The notes: a model not told the origin generated them from the sequence alone. Shown: positions 22,021-30,687, counted from the stretch's first letter. The stretch: DNA of 64,000 nt from Bacteriovoracaceae bacterium (GCA_018649885.1 JABIHA010000086.1:1-64000), one strand, 5' to 3'. A program made the numbers and translations.

Positions 22021-22533
22021 GTGATGGTCGTGTCAAATACTGACCCATGGGCAATAGAGCAATCTGATTTTTTTGCGTGGACAACGAAGTTAGATACATT
22101 TTTAAACTTTGTAAGTAAGAAAAAAGCAGGTGGGGATGTATGGCCTATAAGTATGGCCAATAGTTGTTGCGGCAGTGAGCTCTATTCGACTTCAAGTGAA
22201 AAATATTTTGGCAATAAAATTTCTGCACAGTTTCTTGAAGATTCTCCAGAGGATTGTAATTTACTTATTATTGGTGGCGTTATTACCAGCAAAATGGCCT
22301 TAGAAATTAAGCAGGTCTATTCCCAGATGTTAACTCTCAAAAAGGTTATGGCCCTAGGAAATTGTTCTTGTGGCGGAGGCCTTTATCCCACTTACAATAT
22401 AGTGAAGGGAATTGAAAAAATCATACCTATCGATATATATATACCAGGTTGTCCGCCAAGCCCTGAAGTAATCCTCGCAGGAGTGCTTCAACTTTTAGAA
22501 GAGGTTTCTGTAACGACTGGGGGCCCTCAGTGA
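22021..22533 (+). CDS. nuoB: Divergent NADH-quinone oxidoreductase subunit B-like protein
   Basis: SCC..E, GNC.CGGG, YN.VKG, PIDIYIPGCPP.PE. Confidence 0.8.
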   Translation: MMVVSNTDPWAIEQSDFFAWTTKLDTFLNFVSKKKAGGDVWPISMANSCCGSELYSTSSEKYFGNKISAQFLEDSPEDCNLLIIGGVITSKMALEIKQVYSQMLTLKKVMALGNCSCGGGLYPTYNIVKGIEKIIPIDIYIPGCPPSPEVILAGVLQLLEEVSVTTGGPQ

Positions 22534-24155
22534 AAAATTTGGAAGAAAAATTAAACTTACACCGCGGGGGCAATGACACTGGTGAAATTTTTGTCGAGGG
22601 AGATCCAAATTCAATTAATAGTGAATTGAATTTATTGAAAAATCAATTTGGGTTTTGTTATTTTCTAGATATGTATGCAGCTGAGTGTCCTGGAGATGAT
22701 TTTGATTTTAAAATTTATTACTATATTTTAAATTTAGATGAAAATATCAGAATTAGGTACACAGTTTCAATTTCATCTAAATTTTCGATGCCTTCAGTTA
22801 CTAGTATTTGGAAATGCAGTGATTGGTATGAGCGTGAAATTCATGAAATGTACGGAGTATATTTTGTAAATAGAAACCTCGACCGATTGTTATTACCTGC
22901 AGGATGTTCTGAAAAACCGATGTTAAATAGTTTTCGAATGGGACAAGAAATTGAAGCGACGACTCCCTTTGGCCCCTATTTTACAAAGAGAAATCAAAAA
23001 GACCCATTAAAAAATTGGACGAAAATTTCAACGTGGACCAAGTCTACGCATTTAAGTTTTAAGCTATGGCTACAATCTGATGAAGGAAAGGTGAGTGATT
23101 CTATTGTTGAAGTGGGGTTTCTACATCGAGGTGTTGAGAAGTTGTGCCAGAATCTGAATCTCTTTCAATTGTCTCCTTATATTCAAAGGGTCAATTCTCA
23201 CAGTTTGTTTTGTGGAGAGTTATCTTGGCTTATGGCCATTGAGCAGAGGCTTCAAATAAAAATACCTCCAAAGGCTATGGCAATTAGGATGCTTTTGGCC
23301 GAATTCTCAAGAATCTGGGAGCATTTCTATTTCGTAGAGCAAGTTTGTCTTAAATTAAAAATGGATAAGGACATTCGAGAATTTCAATTTTATAAAGAGT
23401 ATATAACAGAATTGTTTGAGAATTATACTGGTAGACGTCAGTATTCGAATGTCTTCATTGGTGGTGTTCCCTCTGAGTTGCAGGCAGGATGGATTACCTC
23501 TTGTTATGACTTCTTACCCAAGTTAGAAATCTTTACTTCCAAAAAAATTAGAGAATTATCAAAAGATTACTTTTTTTCAGAAATCCTCAGAAGTGATTCC
23601 ATCGATGGCAACACTGCTTTAGAGCTCAGTTTGACTGGACCAACACTAAGGGGATGTGGCATTAATTTTGATATACGCAAATCTTTTCCTTACTATCACT
23701 ACGAAAGTGTAGATTTTGAAATCCCTCTTGGAAAGCATGGGTCATCTTTTGATAGGGTGCTTGTTAGATTGGAAGAGGTTCGTCAAAGTACAAGTATTAT
23801 TTTGCAGCTCCTCGACAATTTGCCCACCGGAAATTTACTAGATGAAGGCCATGAAATAGTCTCCCTTTTTAAAGCACAAGATGATGGAAATTTTAATGCT
23901 TTGGATTTAATGAACTTGATCGATGGAGTGAAAATATCAAAAGATGTTTCCTATAGCTCAATTGAGGCAGGTTCGGGAGAGTGGGGAATTCATTTACACG
24001 GAGATGGATCAAATAAGGCTTCAAGGCTTAGAATTTCTCCTCCTAGTTTTTCATTATTACAAGCATTTCAAAGTTTAGTTATTGGAAGGGAAGTCAGTGA
24101 GTATGGCGCTTTTCTTGAATCCTTTGGTATTAATTCAAGTGAGGTTGATAGGTGA
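22530..24155 (+). CDS. nuoCD: Divergent fused NuoC/NuoD-like protein
   Basis: W…DWYEREI.EMYG (NuoC); GFLHRGVEK, TGP.LRGCG…D.RK..PY..Y, DR.LVR.EE.RQS, C-terminal EVDR (NuoD). Confidence 0.8.
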   Translation: MKNLEEKLNLHRGGNDTGEIFVEGDPNSINSELNLLKNQFGFCYFLDMYAAECPGDDFDFKIYYYILNLDENIRIRYTVSISSKFSMPSVTSIWKCSDWYEREIHEMYGVYFVNRNLDRLLLPAGCSEKPMLNSFRMGQEIEATTPFGPYFTKRNQKDPLKNWTKISTWTKSTHLSFKLWLQSDEGKVSDSIVEVGFLHRGVEKLCQNLNLFQLSPYIQRVNSHSLFCGELSWLMAIEQRLQIKIPPKAMAIRMLLAEFSRIWEHFYFVEQVCLKLKMDKDIREFQFYKEYITELFENYTGRRQYSNVFIGGVPSELQAGWITSCYDFLPKLEIFTSKKIRELSKDYFFSEILRSDSIDGNTALELSLTGPTLRGCGINFDIRKSFPYYHYESVDFEIPLGKHGSSFDRVLVRLEEVRQSTSIILQLLDNLPTGNLLDEGHEIVSLFKAQDDGNFNALDLMNLIDGVKISKDVSYSSIEAGSGEWGIHLHGDGSNKASRLRISPPSFSLLQAFQSLVIGREVSEYGAFLESFGINSSEVDR

Positions 24156-24637
24156 TCATAAAAAAAAGTCATTACAAAAAACCTAGCTTTCATTTTGAGA
24201 TTTTAAGAATCTGTTTTTCAATCTTGCAAGGTGTGAAACGCAAGTGGATAAAAAGATGGGAAGTAAATAAATTTACAATTAATTATGGCGAAGAAGTTTT
24301 TTATTCAAATCGTCATATGGGATTTCCCTCTCTTAAAATGGATTTGGGTCAATCTTTGATTTGTGATGGCTGTAAGCTTTGCAAGAAAATTTGCCCAACA
24401 AATTGCATCGAAATTGATTTGAAAAATGGGGATGGCAATGGGAAAGACAACCTTGCTTGTTTTAGTATTGATTTAAGAAGTTGTTTCTATTGTAATTTAT
24501 GTGTAAGTGTTTGCCCTATATCTGCTATTGAATTTAAAAATGGCTTTTTTTCAGCACAAAACAATGTTGATAAATTTAAAGTAGATTTACTAGAGAGATC
24601 TAATAAACAGTCCCCACCATATAACTTATTCCATTGA
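24152..24637 (+). CDS. nuoI: NuoI-like 2[4Fe-4S] ferredoxin
   Basis: CDGCKLCKKICP and CFYCNLCVSVCP motifs; follows nuoCD. Confidence 0.7.
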   Translation: MIIKKSHYKKPSFHFEILRICFSILQGVKRKWIKRWEVNKFTINYGEEVFYSNRHMGFPSLKMDLGQSLICDGCKLCKKICPTNCIEIDLKNGDGNGKDNLACFSIDLRSCFYCNLCVSVCPISAIEFKNGFFSAQNNVDKFKVDLLERSNKQSPPYNLFH

Positions 24638-24682: not shown

Positions 24683-24754
24683 TGTTCCAAAAGTAAGTTG
24701 TATGAACAATAAAAAAGTCCGTCCCTTGTGCGAAATCCAACTACGTCTTATAAG
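24683..24754 (+). promoter_or_regulatory. Unit 1 operator and sigma70 promoter
   Basis: TGTTCC-N14-TGAACA (24683-24708); TTGTGC(24726)-N17-TATAAG(24749). Confidence 0.7.
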
Positions 24755-24760
24755 TTATCC

Positions 24761-24947
24761 ATCAATGAGGGATAGGTTTTTGTGGCGACTCCAAAAGTTA
24801 GTTCCATCATTCATGACAGACCTCCGTATTTTGTGCACCTTGATTTGAGTCGCACGTTTATAGGCCGGGATCTTCGGGTCCCGACCTTAAAATTTTGAGA
24901 GAGAGATTAAATTATCCGGCCTTCCTAAATGGAAGGCCTTTTTTTTT
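24761..24947 (+). ncRNA. Predicted structured small RNA, copy 1
   Basis: Invariant motifs at 24779-24792 and 24819-24842; GCGACTC/GAGTCGC pairing; C-UUCG-G hairpin 24862-24887; terminator 24918-24947. Confidence 0.75.
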
Positions 24948-25002
24948 CAAAAATTCCAATACTTCCCTGTAATTTTAGGTCATTGTAGATTTCTCAGAGA
25001 CC

Positions 25003-25074
25003 TGTTCCATATTGGTGATTTCGGAACACTTTGTTCCAAAAATAATTGAGAAAAATTGGGTAGTGACCTACAAC
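25003..25074 (+). promoter_or_regulatory. Unit 2 operator and sigma70 promoter
   Basis: TGTTCC-N14-GGAACA-N3-TGTTCC (25003-25037); TTGAGA(25046)-N17-TACAAC(25069). Confidence 0.75.
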
Positions 25075-25080
25075 ACACTT

Positions 25081-25264
25081 AGTCAGAAAGAGACCAAGTG
25101 TTTGTGGCGACTCCTTATGTTTGAGCTCTTTCTATCACGACGACCTCCGTATTTTGTGCACCTTGTAAGAGTCGTACTTTTTTGGCCAGAATTAAGCAAG
25201 CTGGCCAAATTTGGGGAAGAGAGAATAAAAATAGGCCCTCATAAATTGAGGGCCTTTTTTTTTT
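25081..25264 (+). ncRNA. Predicted structured small RNA, copy 2
   Basis: Invariant motifs at 25101-25114 and 25142-25165; hairpin 25181-25209; terminator 25234-25264. Confidence 0.75.
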
Positions 25265-25327
25265 ACTCTCTAGCTTCAATTAGTAAAATCCTCGTAATTT
25301 CAATCAATTGTAGAATTGCCAGAACTG

Positions 25328-25399
25328 TGTTCCATTTGTGATTGTTCGGAACACTTTGTTCCAAAAGTTGTTGAGAAAAATCTGGTGGTGACCTATAAC
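25328..25399 (+). promoter_or_regulatory. Unit 3 operator and sigma70 promoter
   Basis: TGTTCC-N14-GGAACA-N3-TGTTCC (25328-25362); TTGAGA(25371)-N17-TATAAC(25394). Confidence 0.78.
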
Positions 25400-25405
25400 A
25401 CGTCA

Positions 25406-25587
25406 AGTCAGAAAGGGAATGAACATTTGTGGCGACTCCTTGTGTTTGGACTCCTTCTATCATGACAGACCTCCGTATTTTGTGCACCTTGTATGAGTCG
25501 CAATTTTTAACCAGAAGTAAGCTAGCTGGTTAAAGTTGAGAGAGAGAGAATTTTTAATAGGCCCTTCTAAATGAAGGGCCTTTTTTT
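25406..25587 (+). ncRNA. Predicted structured small RNA, copy 3
   Basis: Invariant motifs at 25426-25439 and 25468-25491; hairpin 25506-25534; terminator 25560-25587. Confidence 0.75.
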
Positions 25588-25623
25588 GCTTCAACTCAGA
25601 CTTGTGAATTTATCTCCAGGGAG

Positions 25624-25695
25624 TGTTCCTAATTAATGCCTCAAGAACAGTTTGTTCTGGTACTCGTTGCTCGCTATGCGTAATAGGGTTATAAG
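25624..25695 (+). promoter_or_regulatory. Unit 4 operator and sigma70 promoter
   Basis: TGTTCC-N14-AGAACA-N3-TGTTCT (25624-25658); TTGCTC(25667)-N17-TATAAG(25690). Confidence 0.75.
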
Positions 25696-25701
25696 CTTTT
25701 T

Positions 25702-25833
25702 ATTGAAAGGAAATGAAAATTTGTGGCGACTCCAAGATTTGGTTTCCTCCTTCAAGACAGACCTCCGTATTTTGTGCACCTTGATCTGAGTCGCATATTA
25801 ATGGCCGAATCCACCCGATTCGGCCTTTTTTTT
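25702..25833 (+). ncRNA. Predicted structured small RNA, copy 4 (short form)
   Basis: Invariant motifs at 25720-25733 and 25760-25783; terminator 25803-25833 directly after the core. Confidence 0.75.
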
Positions 25834-25870
25834 CAATAAAAACTATAACTTGAAATTATGAACACGAAGT

Positions 25871-25942
25871 CGTTCCAATTGTTCTGTATCGGAACGGTTT
25901 GTTCCAAAATAGATTGTACCGAGAAACGCACTGCGCTATAAA
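25871..25942 (+). promoter_or_regulatory. Unit 5 operator and sigma70 promoter
   Basis: CGTTCC-N14-GGAACG-N3-TGTTCC (25871-25905); TTGTAC(25914)-N17-TATAAA(25937). Confidence 0.72.
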
Positions 25943-25948
25943 CTCTCT

Positions 25949-26091
25949 ATCGGATTCTTTGAATACGTTTTAGCATGTTTTTATATTTGGCCTTAAAAAG
26001 GCCAAAGCTCCTATTAATTTAGGAGAGGGGAAATCTCTTGGGGAAGGGAAATAAAATGAGGGCCATTATTTATTAATGGCCCTTTTTTTTT
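25949..26091 (+). ncRNA. Predicted small RNA from unit 5, lacking the conserved core
   Basis: Same promoter architecture; hairpins 25986-26006 and 26008-26025, purine tract, terminator 26059-26091. Confidence 0.5.
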
Positions 26092-26755
26092 CAGTAAAAG
26101 GATCTTTCACACTGCCTTGTCTGGCAATGCCAAGTAACTCAATATAGTTTTCTCTTGGGTATTCACTGCCACCAAGAGACTTAACTACAGGGGTGACCAT
26201 CTGGGTGTCCATCCACTCAATTCCATTTTGGTATAAAAATTCCATCACCCAAATGAGTGCAAACTTTGAGGCGTTATCGCTTTCAAAGAACATGGATTCT
26301 CCTGAGAAAACTCCTTTCATAAAGACCCCATAGAGCCCACCGATGAGTTTTCCACCTTCGTCTTTGACCTCAACGCTGTGGGCGTAACCCGCCCGGTGAA
26401 AGAGCCTGAAAGCTGATTGGATTTCATCAGTGATCCACGTACCGCCCTCAAGCTTTCTATTTCCTGAATTAGCGCATCTGCTAATAACTTCATCAAAGCA
26501 AGTATCAACACTTATAAAATGATCTGATTTATTAAAGGCCTTCTTTAGACTTCTAGAAATATATAAATCTTTGTAAAAAAGTATTCCCCTAGGGTTTGGA
26601 CTAAACCAGGCCAGTGGGTACGTACTTGAAATAGGCCAAGGAAAAATTCCCTGCGTGTAGGCCAAAACCAAGGAAGGGATTTCTAGATCTCCGCCTATTG
26701 CGAGAAGTCCATCTTCGGTAGCACTTTCAACAGGAGGAAATTCGATTATTGGCAA
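26066..26755 (-). CDS. aat: Leucyl/phenylalanyl-tRNA--protein transferase
   Basis: GLLA.GGDL, AY..GIFPW, AHSVEV, GGLYGV, F.GESMF, ASK.AL, DTQ. Confidence 0.95.
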   Translation of the reverse strand: MPIIEFPPVESATEDGLLAIGGDLEIPSLVLAYTQGIFPWPISSTYPLAWFSPNPRGILFYKDLYISRSLKKAFNKSDHFISVDTCFDEVISRCANSGNRKLEGGTWITDEIQSAFRLFHRAGYAHSVEVKDEGGKLIGGLYGVFMKGVFSGESMFFESDNASKFALIWVMEFLYQNGIEWMDTQMVTPVVKSLGGSEYPRENYIELLGIARQGSVKDPFTEKKRAINK

Positions 26756-28028: not shown

Positions 28029-28838
28029 ATGCTTACAGACTATCGTACTGTATTAAGAGAGGAACTAGCACGCCGAACTGCTATTAATAGTAGTTATTCA
28101 TTAAGAGCGTTTGCTAGGGCCTTAGAGATGGCGCCATCGGCGTTATCGGAAATTCTCAACGGCAAAAGACCGCTGTCTTTCAAGAAAGCACAAATAGTTG
28201 TTAAAAAACTATGCTTGTCTCCAGAAGAACAGGAAGTCTTTATTAGTTCTATTGATGGCAAGTATCGCCCAAGAGCTAAGAAGGTCGATCAACTAGGTGA
28301 TTTAGGTAGAGACTATTTTCTTGATAAAGATAGATTCTCCCTTGTGGCCGACTGGTATCACTATTCTATTATGGGTATGGCAGAACTCTATGAACTTCCG
28401 GAGCAGATTGAAATTGTTGCGGAGAAATTAAATCTTCCCATTTCAAAAGTTACTGATGGGATAGAAAGATTAAAAAGAGTTGGGCTTCTTGTTTTTACTG
28501 ATGATGGAGTTTTAAAATACGTTGATCCTGTGACTAGACACAACTCAGAGATCCCATCTGAAGCCTTGAGAAAGCACAACCGAGAAATAATTTATAAGGC
28601 CCTTGAAAGTTTGGACAACACACCCCGAACTAAAAGAGACATCACTTCAATGACTATATCAATAAATAGTAAGAATATAGGAAAGGCAAAAGAGAAAATT
28701 GCCGAATTTAAAAAAGAGATGTACACGCTGCTCAAAAGTGGCGCAGATGATTGTTTAGATAAACTATACAATTTGAATATCAATCTTTTCCCATTAGAGA
28801 ATATTGGCGGCAATAAAGGGGGAAAAGATGAAAATTAA
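28029..28838 (+). CDS. TIGR02147/DUF4423-type HTH DNA-binding protein
   Basis: YR..L..EL..R…N..YSLRAFAR.L…PS.LSEILNGKR, W.H..I, R.ITS.T, Y.LNI.LFPL pattern. Confidence 0.8.
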   Translation: MLTDYRTVLREELARRTAINSSYSLRAFARALEMAPSALSEILNGKRPLSFKKAQIVVKKLCLSPEEQEVFISSIDGKYRPRAKKVDQLGDLGRDYFLDKDRFSLVADWYHYSIMGMAELYELPEQIEIVAEKLNLPISKVTDGIERLKRVGLLVFTDDGVLKYVDPVTRHNSEIPSEALRKHNREIIYKALESLDNTPRTKRDITSMTISINSKNIGKAKEKIAEFKKEMYTLLKSGADDCLDKLYNLNINLFPLENIGGNKGGKDEN

Positions 28839-30687
28839 TCTTATCTTCGCAGCTATTGTTGCCTTTACCTTTAATACCAATATCGCTCGTGCAGGTTTTG
28901 CCGGAGATGCTGGCAATGGTGAGATTCTTGTTGGCTGTAATGTTAAGCTGAAGAAGAATGGTTATTTGAAAATCAAATCACTTTCACCAATTGATTTTGT
29001 TGAGGCGAAAAGGTCGAACCCTAACTATCAAGTGGCACACGATCGTCAGACAAGCATTTATAAGCAAGTTATGGTTGCCATTAAGAAAATTGAAGCTGTT
29101 GACAGTAAGTATGCACAACTTGTTGAAAGAGAATTTCAATTCATGATCAGTCGCTATGGTGATCAACCATTTAGAGATGTTCCTGGAATGGATTTTCTAG
29201 ATGAATTGAAGCCTGAAAATTTCATATCAACTTTTATCTATCCTTCAGCGGGTTCACTAACAGAGACTAATGATAGGTATAGTGTTTTTAAAATTCAAGA
29301 AGGTTGTAAGCATTTTCAATTAGTTAACTATCCTGAAAATCTTGAACGCTTTAGCAGCCCAAGAGATGTTAATAATGAGGACAAAATAAAAATTTCTCTC
29401 TCTCTTTGGAATAAAAGAAAGCGTGCTAAGGGCAATCCCAAATACAATAGGAAGCTTTTAACTAAAACTGATAAAGCAGCTGTATTTCTCCACGAAGCGA
29501 TTTACAAAGTTGAAAGAGATTATTTTGATGCTAAGCTTTCAGTACATACTTTAAAAGTTGTTGCAAAATTATTTGAAAAAAATGGAATCCTTTCAGCTTC
29601 AACATTATTTCCAAAATCTAACAAGATTTTTTCAAATGAATCTTTCACCTTTGGAAATATAACTGATTTCTTCTCATACAAAGGCAAATTTGTAGATGTA
29701 TCTGCAAGTTCTTTAAATGCTTCTCAGTGGGACGTGTTTGGATATGTTGGGGTTAGGGGCTATGATGACAAGCTCTATATTGAGGGCTACGGCCCACGAT
29801 CTTTGAGTACTGGTTTTAGATTCTCTGGAGATACTCAACCAAAGATTGCCTTTCTTGGAGATAACCAGTCTCTAGTAATTGGTGATGTTCTTCAAAGTTC
29901 AGTCTGTCCATTGGCCTTCGAAGAGAAACCTGAAATGGAAGCTTGCGGAAGCAACTTTATGGTTCACCAAGGGGTTATTAAAATTCGCCCTTACCTAAGT
30001 GGCAGTGCAAAAGTAATTTGTAAAGTTCTCTACGGAAAAGAAGTGATGCTTTGTGGAGTTGATGAAAATTCAAGTGCCAGAGGAAGAGGTATTTCAAAGT
30101 ATATTGTACTCCAAAAGAACCCTGGTTTCGAAGGTGGCAATTTAAGTCAGAAAATTAAAGAAACTAAGTGGACCTTGGTTGGGAAAGTTAAAGAAGTTAA
30201 TGATGATGTTATGATCAATATGTTTCAAGGTACCGACCAGGCACTTAAAGGGGTTGTTGACTCTTATAGCAGGCTGCTATTTGGAACCAACAATGAGTTT
30301 CACATGGTAGCGGATTTTCAGAATGAGATTTGTTCTGAAGGTGAAGGTATCACCGCTAGAGATGTTCTTGGCGAAGATATACCAGAAAGGTACTCCATGG
30401 GTGATGCTGTAGGAGCTATGAGCACCGGCCGGCTGGTAGGACCTACTGCAATAGGAATGGTTTCAATTGCAGAAACTATTACTGCTAAGGAGCATTTGAC
30501 TTGTGGAAGCAATTATTCAGTAAGGGGTGATAAAATATTACTTAGCAGTGAAGATGGGAATGTAGACGATAGTGTTGCCTGTATTACAAACTATCATTTT
30601 AATTACTTAATTTGCTATTCTGTGAAGGCTCCAGGTTTTAATCTCAGTGTTTATAAAAATGATTGCGAAGGCCCTGCTTGTAATTAA
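28828..30687 (+). CDS. Hypothetical secreted protein (likely start MKINL at 28828)
   Basis: Signal peptide followed by GDAGNG; A.FLHEAIY motif; overlaps end of the HTH gene. Confidence 0.75.
   Translation: MKINLIFAAIVAFTFNTNIARAGFAGDAGNGEILVGCNVKLKKNGYLKIKSLSPIDFVEAKRSNPNYQVAHDRQTSIYKQVMVAIKKIEAVDSKYAQLVEREFQFMISRYGDQPFRDVPGMDFLDELKPENFISTFIYPSAGSLTETNDRYSVFKIQEGCKHFQLVNYPENLERFSSPRDVNNEDKIKISLSLWNKRKRAKGNPKYNRKLLTKTDKAAVFLHEAIYKVERDYFDAKLSVHTLKVVAKLFEKNGILSASTLFPKSNKIFSNESFTFGNITDFFSYKGKFVDVSASSLNASQWDVFGYVGVRGYDDKLYIEGYGPRSLSTGFRFSGDTQPKIAFLGDNQSLVIGDVLQSSVCPLAFEEKPEMEACGSNFMVHQGVIKIRPYLSGSAKVICKVLYGKEVMLCGVDENSSARGRGISKYIVLQKNPGFEGGNLSQKIKETKWTLVGKVKEVNDDVMINMFQGTDQALKGVVDSYSRLLFGTNNEFHMVADFQNEICSEGEGITARDVLGEDIPERYSMGDAVGAMSTGRLVGPTAIGMVSIAETITAKEHLTCGSNYSVRGDKILLSSEDGNVDDSVACITNYHFNYLICYSVKAPGFNLSVYKNDCEGPACN

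Follow-up and report, generated by a model that had tools for sequence, protein, structure and literature searches.

A tandem array of predicted sibling small RNAs with a common operator in a Bacteriovoracaceae bacterium

In a Bacteriovoracaceae bacterium, five similar units on the plus strand occupy the 1.43 kb that separate a nuoI-like gene from the convergent aat gene, and the question raised by this locus is what the units encode and how they are controlled. The DNA analysed (GCA_018649885.1 JABIHA010000086.1:1-64000, hereafter the window) is 64,000 nt long, and its host genome (G000, 5.45 Mb, 92% complete, contigs given as C-numbers) is probably that of a marine bacterium related to the predatory bdellovibrios, a placement made via Atlas taxa for one protein. 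We suggest that units 1-4 encode co-regulated sibling small RNAs (sRNAs), derived by local duplication in the lineage, which would act in trans by base pairing and repress translation without Hfq, while the RNA of unit 5, under the same control, would differ from them in its body. To this model as a whole we give a probability of roughly 0.55; its parts are interdependent and its targets are candidates only. The narrower proposal, that the array consists of functional non-coding RNA (ncRNA) genes, is very probably right judging from the sequence anatomy described below.

All units follow the same order: operator, TTGxxx-N17-TAHAAx site, an A 7 nt further on, RNA body and GGCC-stem terminator. 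Between 24641 and 26100 there are five TTGxxx-N17-TAHAAx sites, all on the plus strand and one per unit (60 shuffles: mean 0.2, maximum 2), and the A 7 nt past the -10 boxes is found at 24761, 25081, 25406, 25702 and 25949. A strict TATAAT promoter scan picked up none of the five unit promoters because the final base of their -10 box is other than T. The final T is also absent in five of the eight tRNA genes having a TTGxxx-N17-TAHAAx site (36 tRNA and transfer-messenger RNA genes were called). The plus strand carries five GGCC-stem terminators, and terminator-like sites overall number nine vs 2.1 in shuffles. A first, sequence-only reading of the locus had described five complete operator-promoter-terminator units; promoters, A and terminators were recovered in all of them, whereas the operator of unit 1 turned out to be only partial.

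Units 1-4 share a 14-mer, a 24-mer and GAGTCG, all 100% identical between the copies and with both longer motifs at the positions first reported, while identity drops to 46-60% in stem arms, linker and tail. Allowing up to 4 mismatches, no further copy of the 24-mer was found in the rest of the 5.45-Mb genome, and the 14-mer, with one mismatch allowed, has two isolated extra matches; the array RNA occurs in G000 in four copies, all of them in the array. Unit 5 lacks both core motifs and has the control elements in common with the array, and the purine tract and terminator in common with units 1-3.

In unit 1 the partial operator TGTTCC-N15-GAACA (24683-24708, plus strand as for all unit features) lacks the right arm of the palindrome and fails the palindrome test. 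The promoter pattern scan places TTGTGC-N17-TATAAG at 24726-24754, and the predicted sRNA 1 of 187 nt (24761-24947, start and end inferred) consists of a 5' hairpin with the 14-mer in its loop (24779-24792), the 24-mer (24819-24842), GAGTCGC (24847-24853), a third hairpin, a purine tract and the terminator (24918-24947). Unit 2 has its operator at 25003-25037, with the half-site TGTTCC, 14 nt and the palindrome GGAACA-CTT-TGTTCC (25023-25037, centre at -51), then the promoter-like site TTGAGA-N17-TACAAC (25046-25074) and a predicted sRNA 2 of 184 nt (25081-25264; 14-mer 25101-25114, 24-mer 25142-25165, GAGTCGT 25169-25175, terminator 25233-25264). For unit 3 the operator is at 25328-25362 (palindrome 25348-25362), the promoter-like site TTGAGA-N17-TATAAC at 25371-25399 and the predicted sRNA 3, about 183 nt, at 25406-25588 (14-mer 25426-25439, 24-mer 25468-25491, GAGTCGC 25495-25501, terminator 25559-25587). 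The operator of unit 4 (25624-25658) holds the variant palindrome AGAACA-GTT-TGTTCT (25644-25658) and is followed by TTGCTC-N17-TATAAG (25667-25695) and a predicted sRNA 4 of 132 nt (25702-25833; 14-mer 25720-25733, 24-mer 25760-25783, GAGTCGC 25788-25794), the third hairpin of which doubles as terminator (25803-25833). Finally, unit 5 has the operator at 25871-25905 (palindrome GGAACG-GTT-TGTTCC, 25891-25905), the promoter-like site TTGTAC-N17-TATAAA at 25914-25942 and a predicted RNA 5 of about 143 nt (25949-26091) with a strong fold (z -3.9); its terminator (26058-26084) is bidirectional and overlaps the stop codon of aat (Leu/Phe-tRNA protein transferase, 26066-26755, minus strand). The upstream flank is the gene for the nuoI-like 4Fe-4S protein (24152-24637, plus strand).

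The array is genuine sequence and an assembly artefact is excluded, as the same sequence was obtained in independent marine assemblies: a 1042-nt contig from another study's run covers 25044-26085 with no differences, and a metagenome contig of the same species (L096) agrees with the window over 6961 nt with one mismatch. Could it be a non-functional tandem duplication, or repeats acting at the DNA level as protein-binding or recombination sites? Its presence in one genome only among those searched would fit such an origin, as would the other inserts accepted by the nuoI-aat junction of relatives, but the invariant blocks amid divergent flanks, the compensatory stem changes and the intact promoter and terminator of all five units on one strand speak against it, and we hold it to be very improbable. 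The same low credence applies to short mRNAs, leader peptides or cis-acting elements. Every unit contains open reading frames (ORFs) of 8-54 codons; against this, the distances from 14-mer to 24-mer are 40, 41, 42 and 40 nt, therefore no reading frame is common to the copies, as the sequence-only reading had argued, each unit ends in its own terminator and no plus strand gene follows downstream.

Turning to the RNAs themselves, the predicted 5' domains of all four are long hairpins whose tip is formed by the 14-mer. In the upper 5' stem, two of eight pairs show changes on both sides and three of eight on one side with pairing kept, weak evidence with only four sequences. RNAalifold did not recover the 5' stem; in the alignment its lower part is out of register. 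The loop contains the heptamer GCGACUC, a complement over 7 bp of the GAGUCGY just 3' of the 24-mer, with one G-C to G-U change, and a helix of at least 7 bp between the conserved blocks arose in 0.4% of 20000 shuffles. It seems that the 5' hairpin loop (UGGCGACUC) may pair with the downstream GAGUCGY, as a pseudoknot or as an alternative helix, thereby leaving the 24-mer largely single-stranded; should both helices coexist, the result would be an H-type-like pseudoknot with the 24-mer in a long connecting loop, or they could be alternatives to each other, at comparable energies. The pseudoknot-reserved fold lies 4.6-6.0 kcal/mol off the minimum free energy (MFE) before the helix of about -10 is added, and the predicted cost of unpairing the pairing stretch of the 24-mer is 1.6-3.9 kcal/mol. 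The 24-mer carries two anti-Shine-Dalgarno (anti-SD) stretches, CCUCC and CACCUU.

Candidate mRNA targets were searched in our own G000 gene calls (4572 genes), with start windows from -30 to +10 amounting to 1.7% of the sequence. Outside the array the genome contains four perfect complements of at least 13 nt to the 24-mer, and three of these fall at translation starts; the fourth, a 13-nt match on C131, lies within a coding region and was set aside. The purB match (TIGR00928, C147:12145) covers 14 nt, from -12 to +1, and takes in the AAGGUG SD as well as the first two bases of AUG. Two lipoprotein genes (C138:15864 and C32:2425) match over 13 nt from -22 to -9, longer with G-U pairs and with duplex energies of -22 to -27 kcal/mol, and both lie directly upstream of virB2-like genes in two clusters resembling type IV secretion systems (T4SS-like). 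The probability of at least two start matches was 0.0005 in 2000 dinucleotide shuffles and 0.005 with the anti-SD kept, both nominal values. A radical-SAM gene (C24:49123), matched over 11 nt, and four sites matched over 10 nt are weaker candidates, and the 14-mer has no match of at least 10 nt at translation starts. In relatives, the purB starts of 29 loci match over 3-7 nt only, and the lipoprotein homologs of 29 loci with a called start over 4-7 nt (one further locus has no called start).

Hence we suggest that the 24-mer would pair over 13-15 nt with ribosome-binding regions and block initiation without Hfq or ProQ, neither of which was found in the 92% complete genome, in which KhpA and CsrA are present. 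The top candidate targets of these four near-redundant RNAs would be purB and, in two T4SS-like clusters, the lipoprotein gene that immediately precedes virB2. The proposal that the array is a multi-copy ncRNA system, regulatory or protein-binding, controlled by one transcription factor gains support from the present analysis, and the choice between the two now leans to base pairing at translation starts, a mode of action we consider probable from complementarity.

The main competing view is that of a structured RNA binding a protein or ligand, as decoy, antitoxin or sponge, in which pseudoknot and 24-mer make up the recognition surface, the copies serve dosage and the mRNA matches are due to chance. 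It would account for motifs that stay fully invariant while stems drift, for the energetic nearness of the pseudoknot-reserved fold to the MFE and for the lack of regulon enrichment of 24-mer k-mers; CsrA and KhpA are present in the genome, and the accessible part of the literature describes a stand-alone riboswitch RNA in Bdellovibrio proposed as a c-di-GMP sponge (PMC3627812). Against such a role stand the flanks, nuoI-like and aat, with no adjoining partner gene, a core without Rfam match even at E 10, the absence of repeated GGA loops of CsrB type and an excess of long matches at translation starts left unexplained. We therefore regard it as unlikely, while acknowledging a number of observations that weigh against base pairing. 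Several length thresholds were tried for the 24-mer complements. The two lipoprotein sites count as one event because they are paralogous, with flanks 76-89% identical. At starts there is no enrichment for 6-8-mers taken from the 24-mer (TACGGAG ranks 1591 of 9840), and 10-nt start matches number 8 vs 3.2-4.0 expected (P 0.06-0.11). The non-core RNA parts give six matches of at least 13 nt in about 700 nt, roughly 0.1 per 24 nt, and the candidate targets share no obvious pathway. Further, a seed needs less than an invariant stretch of 24 nt together with an invariant loop, the covariation measures were reached by 40-60 of 500 shuffles, and six of the seven pseudoknot pairs are invariant.

Three other complements were noted outside the core: unit 5 (25949-26091) to the translation start at C16:72651 (15 nt, perfect), a stem arm of unit 4 (25742-25755) to that at C47:50055 (14 nt, perfect) and unit 3 to C92:381 (13 nt). 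These could be copy-specific targets or background. As to the lipoprotein genes, we found three clusters (C138:13847-18384, C32:1-4826 and C135:20594-31507, the last running on into further T4SS-like genes) which have in common an XRE gene in divergent orientation, small secreted proteins, a lipoprotein and a VirB2-like pilin. Lipoprotein clusters are patchy, found in 61 of 237 family genomes with up to six matches each, and the C138 cluster neighbours what we take by eye to be ParA-like and transposase-like genes, which together suggests that they belong to mobile elements.

What might switch on the array? The operator is a 15-bp palindrome, GGAACA-N3-TGTTCC, placed 8 nt 5' of the -35 with its centre at -51, and as a regulator site common to the array promoters it is full in four of the five units and partial in unit 1. 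Among 236 relatives, nine carry the three-half-site operator pattern, two of the matches lying between a TIGR02147-like helix-turn-helix (HTH) gene and a divergent secreted-protein gene. Upstream of TIGR02147-like genes of relatives a palindrome followed after 7-8 nt by a -35 was found in 8 of 29 (shuffles: mean 0.15, maximum 3), with arms individual to each gene; other G000 genes show this pattern in 52 of 4542 cases. Within G000 a GGAAC-type palindrome with full promoter is found only in units 2, 3 and 5 and at one of the about 30 TIGR02147 paralogs, C143:10960. The array palindrome, with at most two mismatches, is present upstream of 9 of the 16 closest homologs of this gene (shuffles: mean 0.12, maximum 1), including 7 of 12 previously unseen loci; in the homolog clade (n=16, support 98/93) 11 of 16 have the site. 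A matrix built from relatives' sites ranks among its top eight intergenic G000 sites the two of C143:10960 itself, two at C143:61166 (a secreted-protein gene), one at C21:110384 and units 2, 3 and 5.

As the site of one TIGR02147/DUF4423 clade, the operator points to C143:10960, and we predict, with good likelihood on this co-occurrence, that the C143-type protein is the array regulator. Its gene product (G000:C143:10960-11736) scores 102 bits for TIGR02147 (cut-off 50) and 150 for PF14394 (cut-off 30), and it matches the PADLOC model Control_protein, a restriction-modification (R-M) controller, with E 1.4e-5. The AlphaFold model has a pLDDT (predicted local distance difference test score) of 90, and a Foldseek search with it gave no match at E<=0.001, only weak ones to HigA and MarR. 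In our model a signal of some kind would reach this XRE-type HTH protein, which would bind the palindrome at each sigma70-type promoter and would activate rather than repress, at odds a little better than even, so that the regulator's own operon, a few secreted-protein genes and all five array promoters would be switched on at the same time.

Some facts count against this assignment. Unit 1 has no full palindrome and is not among the best 45 of the 52 matrix sites, and unit 4 ranks 30th of 52. The palindrome plus -35 pattern was defined after the upstream regions of the 29 genes had been viewed; the matrix comes from 11 relatives' sites chosen by likeness to the array motif, five of 16 loci being dropped as they had no site; and among the 30 paralogs of G000 only 4 satisfy the palindrome test (P 0.08). 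Outside the C143 clade GG-type palindromes occur in 3 of 27 proteins, hence other paralogs could bind the operator as well.

A correct RNA reading with a different regulator, be it an NtrC-like protein (C72:71462), another TIGR02147 paralog or LexA, we find improbable. The C72 promoter has TGTTCC-N14-GGAACA and is similar to that of unit 1 (local score 34, reached by 0.3% of 3000 planted-motif controls), but none of 29 NtrC-like homologs has the dyad upstream, and this candidate is not supported. Nor is LexA supported, the upstream region of lexA being without the motif. The TIGR02147 gene (HTH_3 plus DUF4423) in the window itself, at 28029-28838 on the plus strand, is only 2 kb off and has a TGTTCC half-site upstream; it is the weaker candidate, lying outside the palindrome clade and having no palindrome.

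Some features of these loci deserve mention in their own right. The C72 promoter region (G000:C72:71352-71440, L077) shows an 11-bp inverted repeat starting with TGTTCC and blocks common to the unit 1 promoter, and the NtrC-like gene may be a co-regulated target or tied to the origin of the array. In the window at 28029-30687 the TIGR02147 gene is followed by an overlapping gene for a 627-aa protein with no Pfam family and a signal-peptide-like start, a layout matching C143:10960-12779. The secreted protein divergent from the candidate regulator (L148:1800-2288, minus strand) is a neighbour also in G029 and G228; it falls in unnamed Bdellovibrionota Atlas clusters with weak likeness to DUF992/EipA, which suggests an envelope role, as a lead only. 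The palindromes of TIGR02147/DUF4423 genes are paralog-specific, sit just 5' of the -35 and have arms that vary on both sides between clades (loci L154-L182, L246-L262 and G000:C143:10871-10915), which is a finding in its own right; the predicted operator variants are of GGAAC-, GCAAC-, GTAAC-, ACGAC- and GAACC-type.

Is the family already known, and where did the array come from? The claim of an unrecognised family held up in the Rfam covariance check: against Rfam 15 there were 33 matches at E<=10, all below the gathering threshold (best 27.5 bits) and mostly on terminators, with the core unmatched. BLAST against 60 relatives returned six short matches (E 0.001-0.008) on terminator and purine-tract parts of the query only. 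The motif pattern gave five single matches in 200 family genomes and 39 in viral contigs, none with the core; 18 single matches in genome contigs, from taxa unrelated by title, were taken as chance, and the one match in metagenome contigs belonged to the same species. A covariance model built from copies 1-4, as had been proposed earlier, recognised no relative: in 150 family genomes it gave 17 matches of 20-26 bits in 15 genomes, 15 of the 17 within ORFs, and in 100 phylum genomes none. The searched set has no genus-mate of G000, so a narrow family would escape these searches. Contigs of four DNA runs over the array showed no variants, and there is therefore no covariation between strains to draw upon. 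Of the nuoI-like loci of 29 relatives, nine have aat nearby; in seven of these the two genes are -77 to 57 nt apart, and in two other inserts (472 and 687 nt) lie between them. The array is therefore a lineage-specific insertion between the nuoI-like gene and aat. Upstream, 22021-24637 of the window holds only nuoB-, nuoCD- and nuoI-like genes, and in most of the relatives' loci the nuoI-like gene closes the cluster and varied genes follow; the junction looks like an insertion hotspot.

Known classes of repeated or structured elements were rejected in turn. A CRISPR (clustered regularly interspaced short palindromic repeats) array, dismissed already by the sequence-only reading, would have identical repeats and unique spacers under one leader plus cas genes; it does not fit units each ending in a terminator, and cas1 was not found in the 92% complete genome. 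The 6S RNA of G000, a class folded as a rod with central bubble, lies at C73:46755-46953; the array has no RF00013 match and its folds are not rods. For a TnpB/Cas12f omega RNA, PF07282 was not found in G000, a search which did not extend to IscB. A retron or DRT ncRNA was discarded as the sole reverse transcriptase found sits on another contig, C141. This gene (G000:C141:14099-15415, L264) has RT_UG17 as its nearest named PADLOC model and shows no link to the array. RNAs of CsrB/RsmZ type have many GGA motifs in hairpin loops; the conserved loops of the array are without them, though CsrA is present.

RNA regulation in Bdellovibrionota is little described beyond a few RNAs of B. bacteriovorus, and the array offers a concrete and testable set of sRNAs and targets. 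For TIGR02147 our literature search found no functional paper, and DUF4423 only as a table entry; with the operator prediction and the variants tracking the protein tree, the function of these proteins becomes testable and their regulons readable across the phylum. Novelty lies in the sequence family itself, a possible pseudoknot, the phylum and the tie to TIGR02147 proteins. Further, we speculate, quite tentatively, that the lineage-expanded TIGR02147/DUF4423 proteins are paralog-specific autoregulatory switches, one of which would recently have gained a pseudoknotted, Hfq-independent sRNA array silencing a T4SS-like cluster and purB. In a bolder form, the pseudoknot may be a ligand- or protein-gated switch exposing the seed.

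Sets of sibling sRNAs exist in other bacteria, Vibrio Qrr1-5 being an example. The rarity that the sequence-only reading implied for this architecture finds no support, since sibling arrays with individual promoters under one regulator have been published for NsiR1, LhrC1-5 and NmsRA/B. As far as the available parts of the respective papers describe them, the LhrC1-5 sRNAs of Listeria monocytogenes are multicopy, four at one locus, each with its own promoter under one regulator and with an element upstream of -53, and by C-rich single-stranded motifs they block the SD of an operon-internal target, much as we propose for the 24-mer (PMC4132741). They differ in the LisR two-component regulator vs XRE/DUF4423, in the Firmicute host and in showing no sequence match, and a pseudoknot goes unmentioned in that part of the text. 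NsiR1 of Nostoc PCC 7120 is, in the passages at hand, likewise a tandem of siblings with individual promoters, a common motif, one regulator and translation repression; it has 12 copies of about 60 nt, depends on HetR and has one copy antisense to the leader of the neighbouring hetF (PMC9045159), whereas our array comprises 4+1 units, each 132-187 nt long, and its only cis-antisense target is the 3' end of aat.

The Streptococcus csRNAs, by the excerpted account, are five similar sRNAs under one regulator, in which an unpaired region between stem-loops complements SD and start codon, as the 24-mer does for purB (-12 to +1); unlike the array they form a genus-wide family in the CiaR regulon (PMC3091779), whereas the array was found in one genome only and its 24-mer is without the full CAU anti-start triplet. 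Neisseria NmsRA/B, from what the sections consulted give, are intergenic siblings arranged in tandem, with about 70% identity, a pair of anti-SD motifs and targets in metabolism, and differ by two copies, RelA control and Hfq in the host (PMC5362039). On the regulator side, the partial source on R-M controller (C) proteins reports an XRE-type HTH and paired palindromic operators at their own promoter, as for C143, with the activating site of C.AhdI centred at -44 (PMC2275141). The C143 site has its centre at -51 and a second site further upstream, not over the -35, and TIGR02147 proteins differ in their about 260 aa with a DUF4423 domain and in having no adjoining R-M genes.

Closer to the host, Bdellovibrio bacteriovorus has APsRNA1-7, merRNA and a hit-locus sRNA, which the available descriptions set apart from the array as individual loci, some of them FliA-driven (PMC3627812, PMC3818213); merRNA holds a c-di-GMP riboswitch there, and the array is without such an Rfam match. 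The literature as retrieved in part gave no other Bdellovibrionota ncRNAs and nothing on the array locus, and supplementary sRNA tables could hold relatives. The architecture of the array is a known one and its predicted mode of action resembles that of LhrC1-5, NsiR1, the csRNAs and NmsR, though by sequence it is a member of none of these four families.

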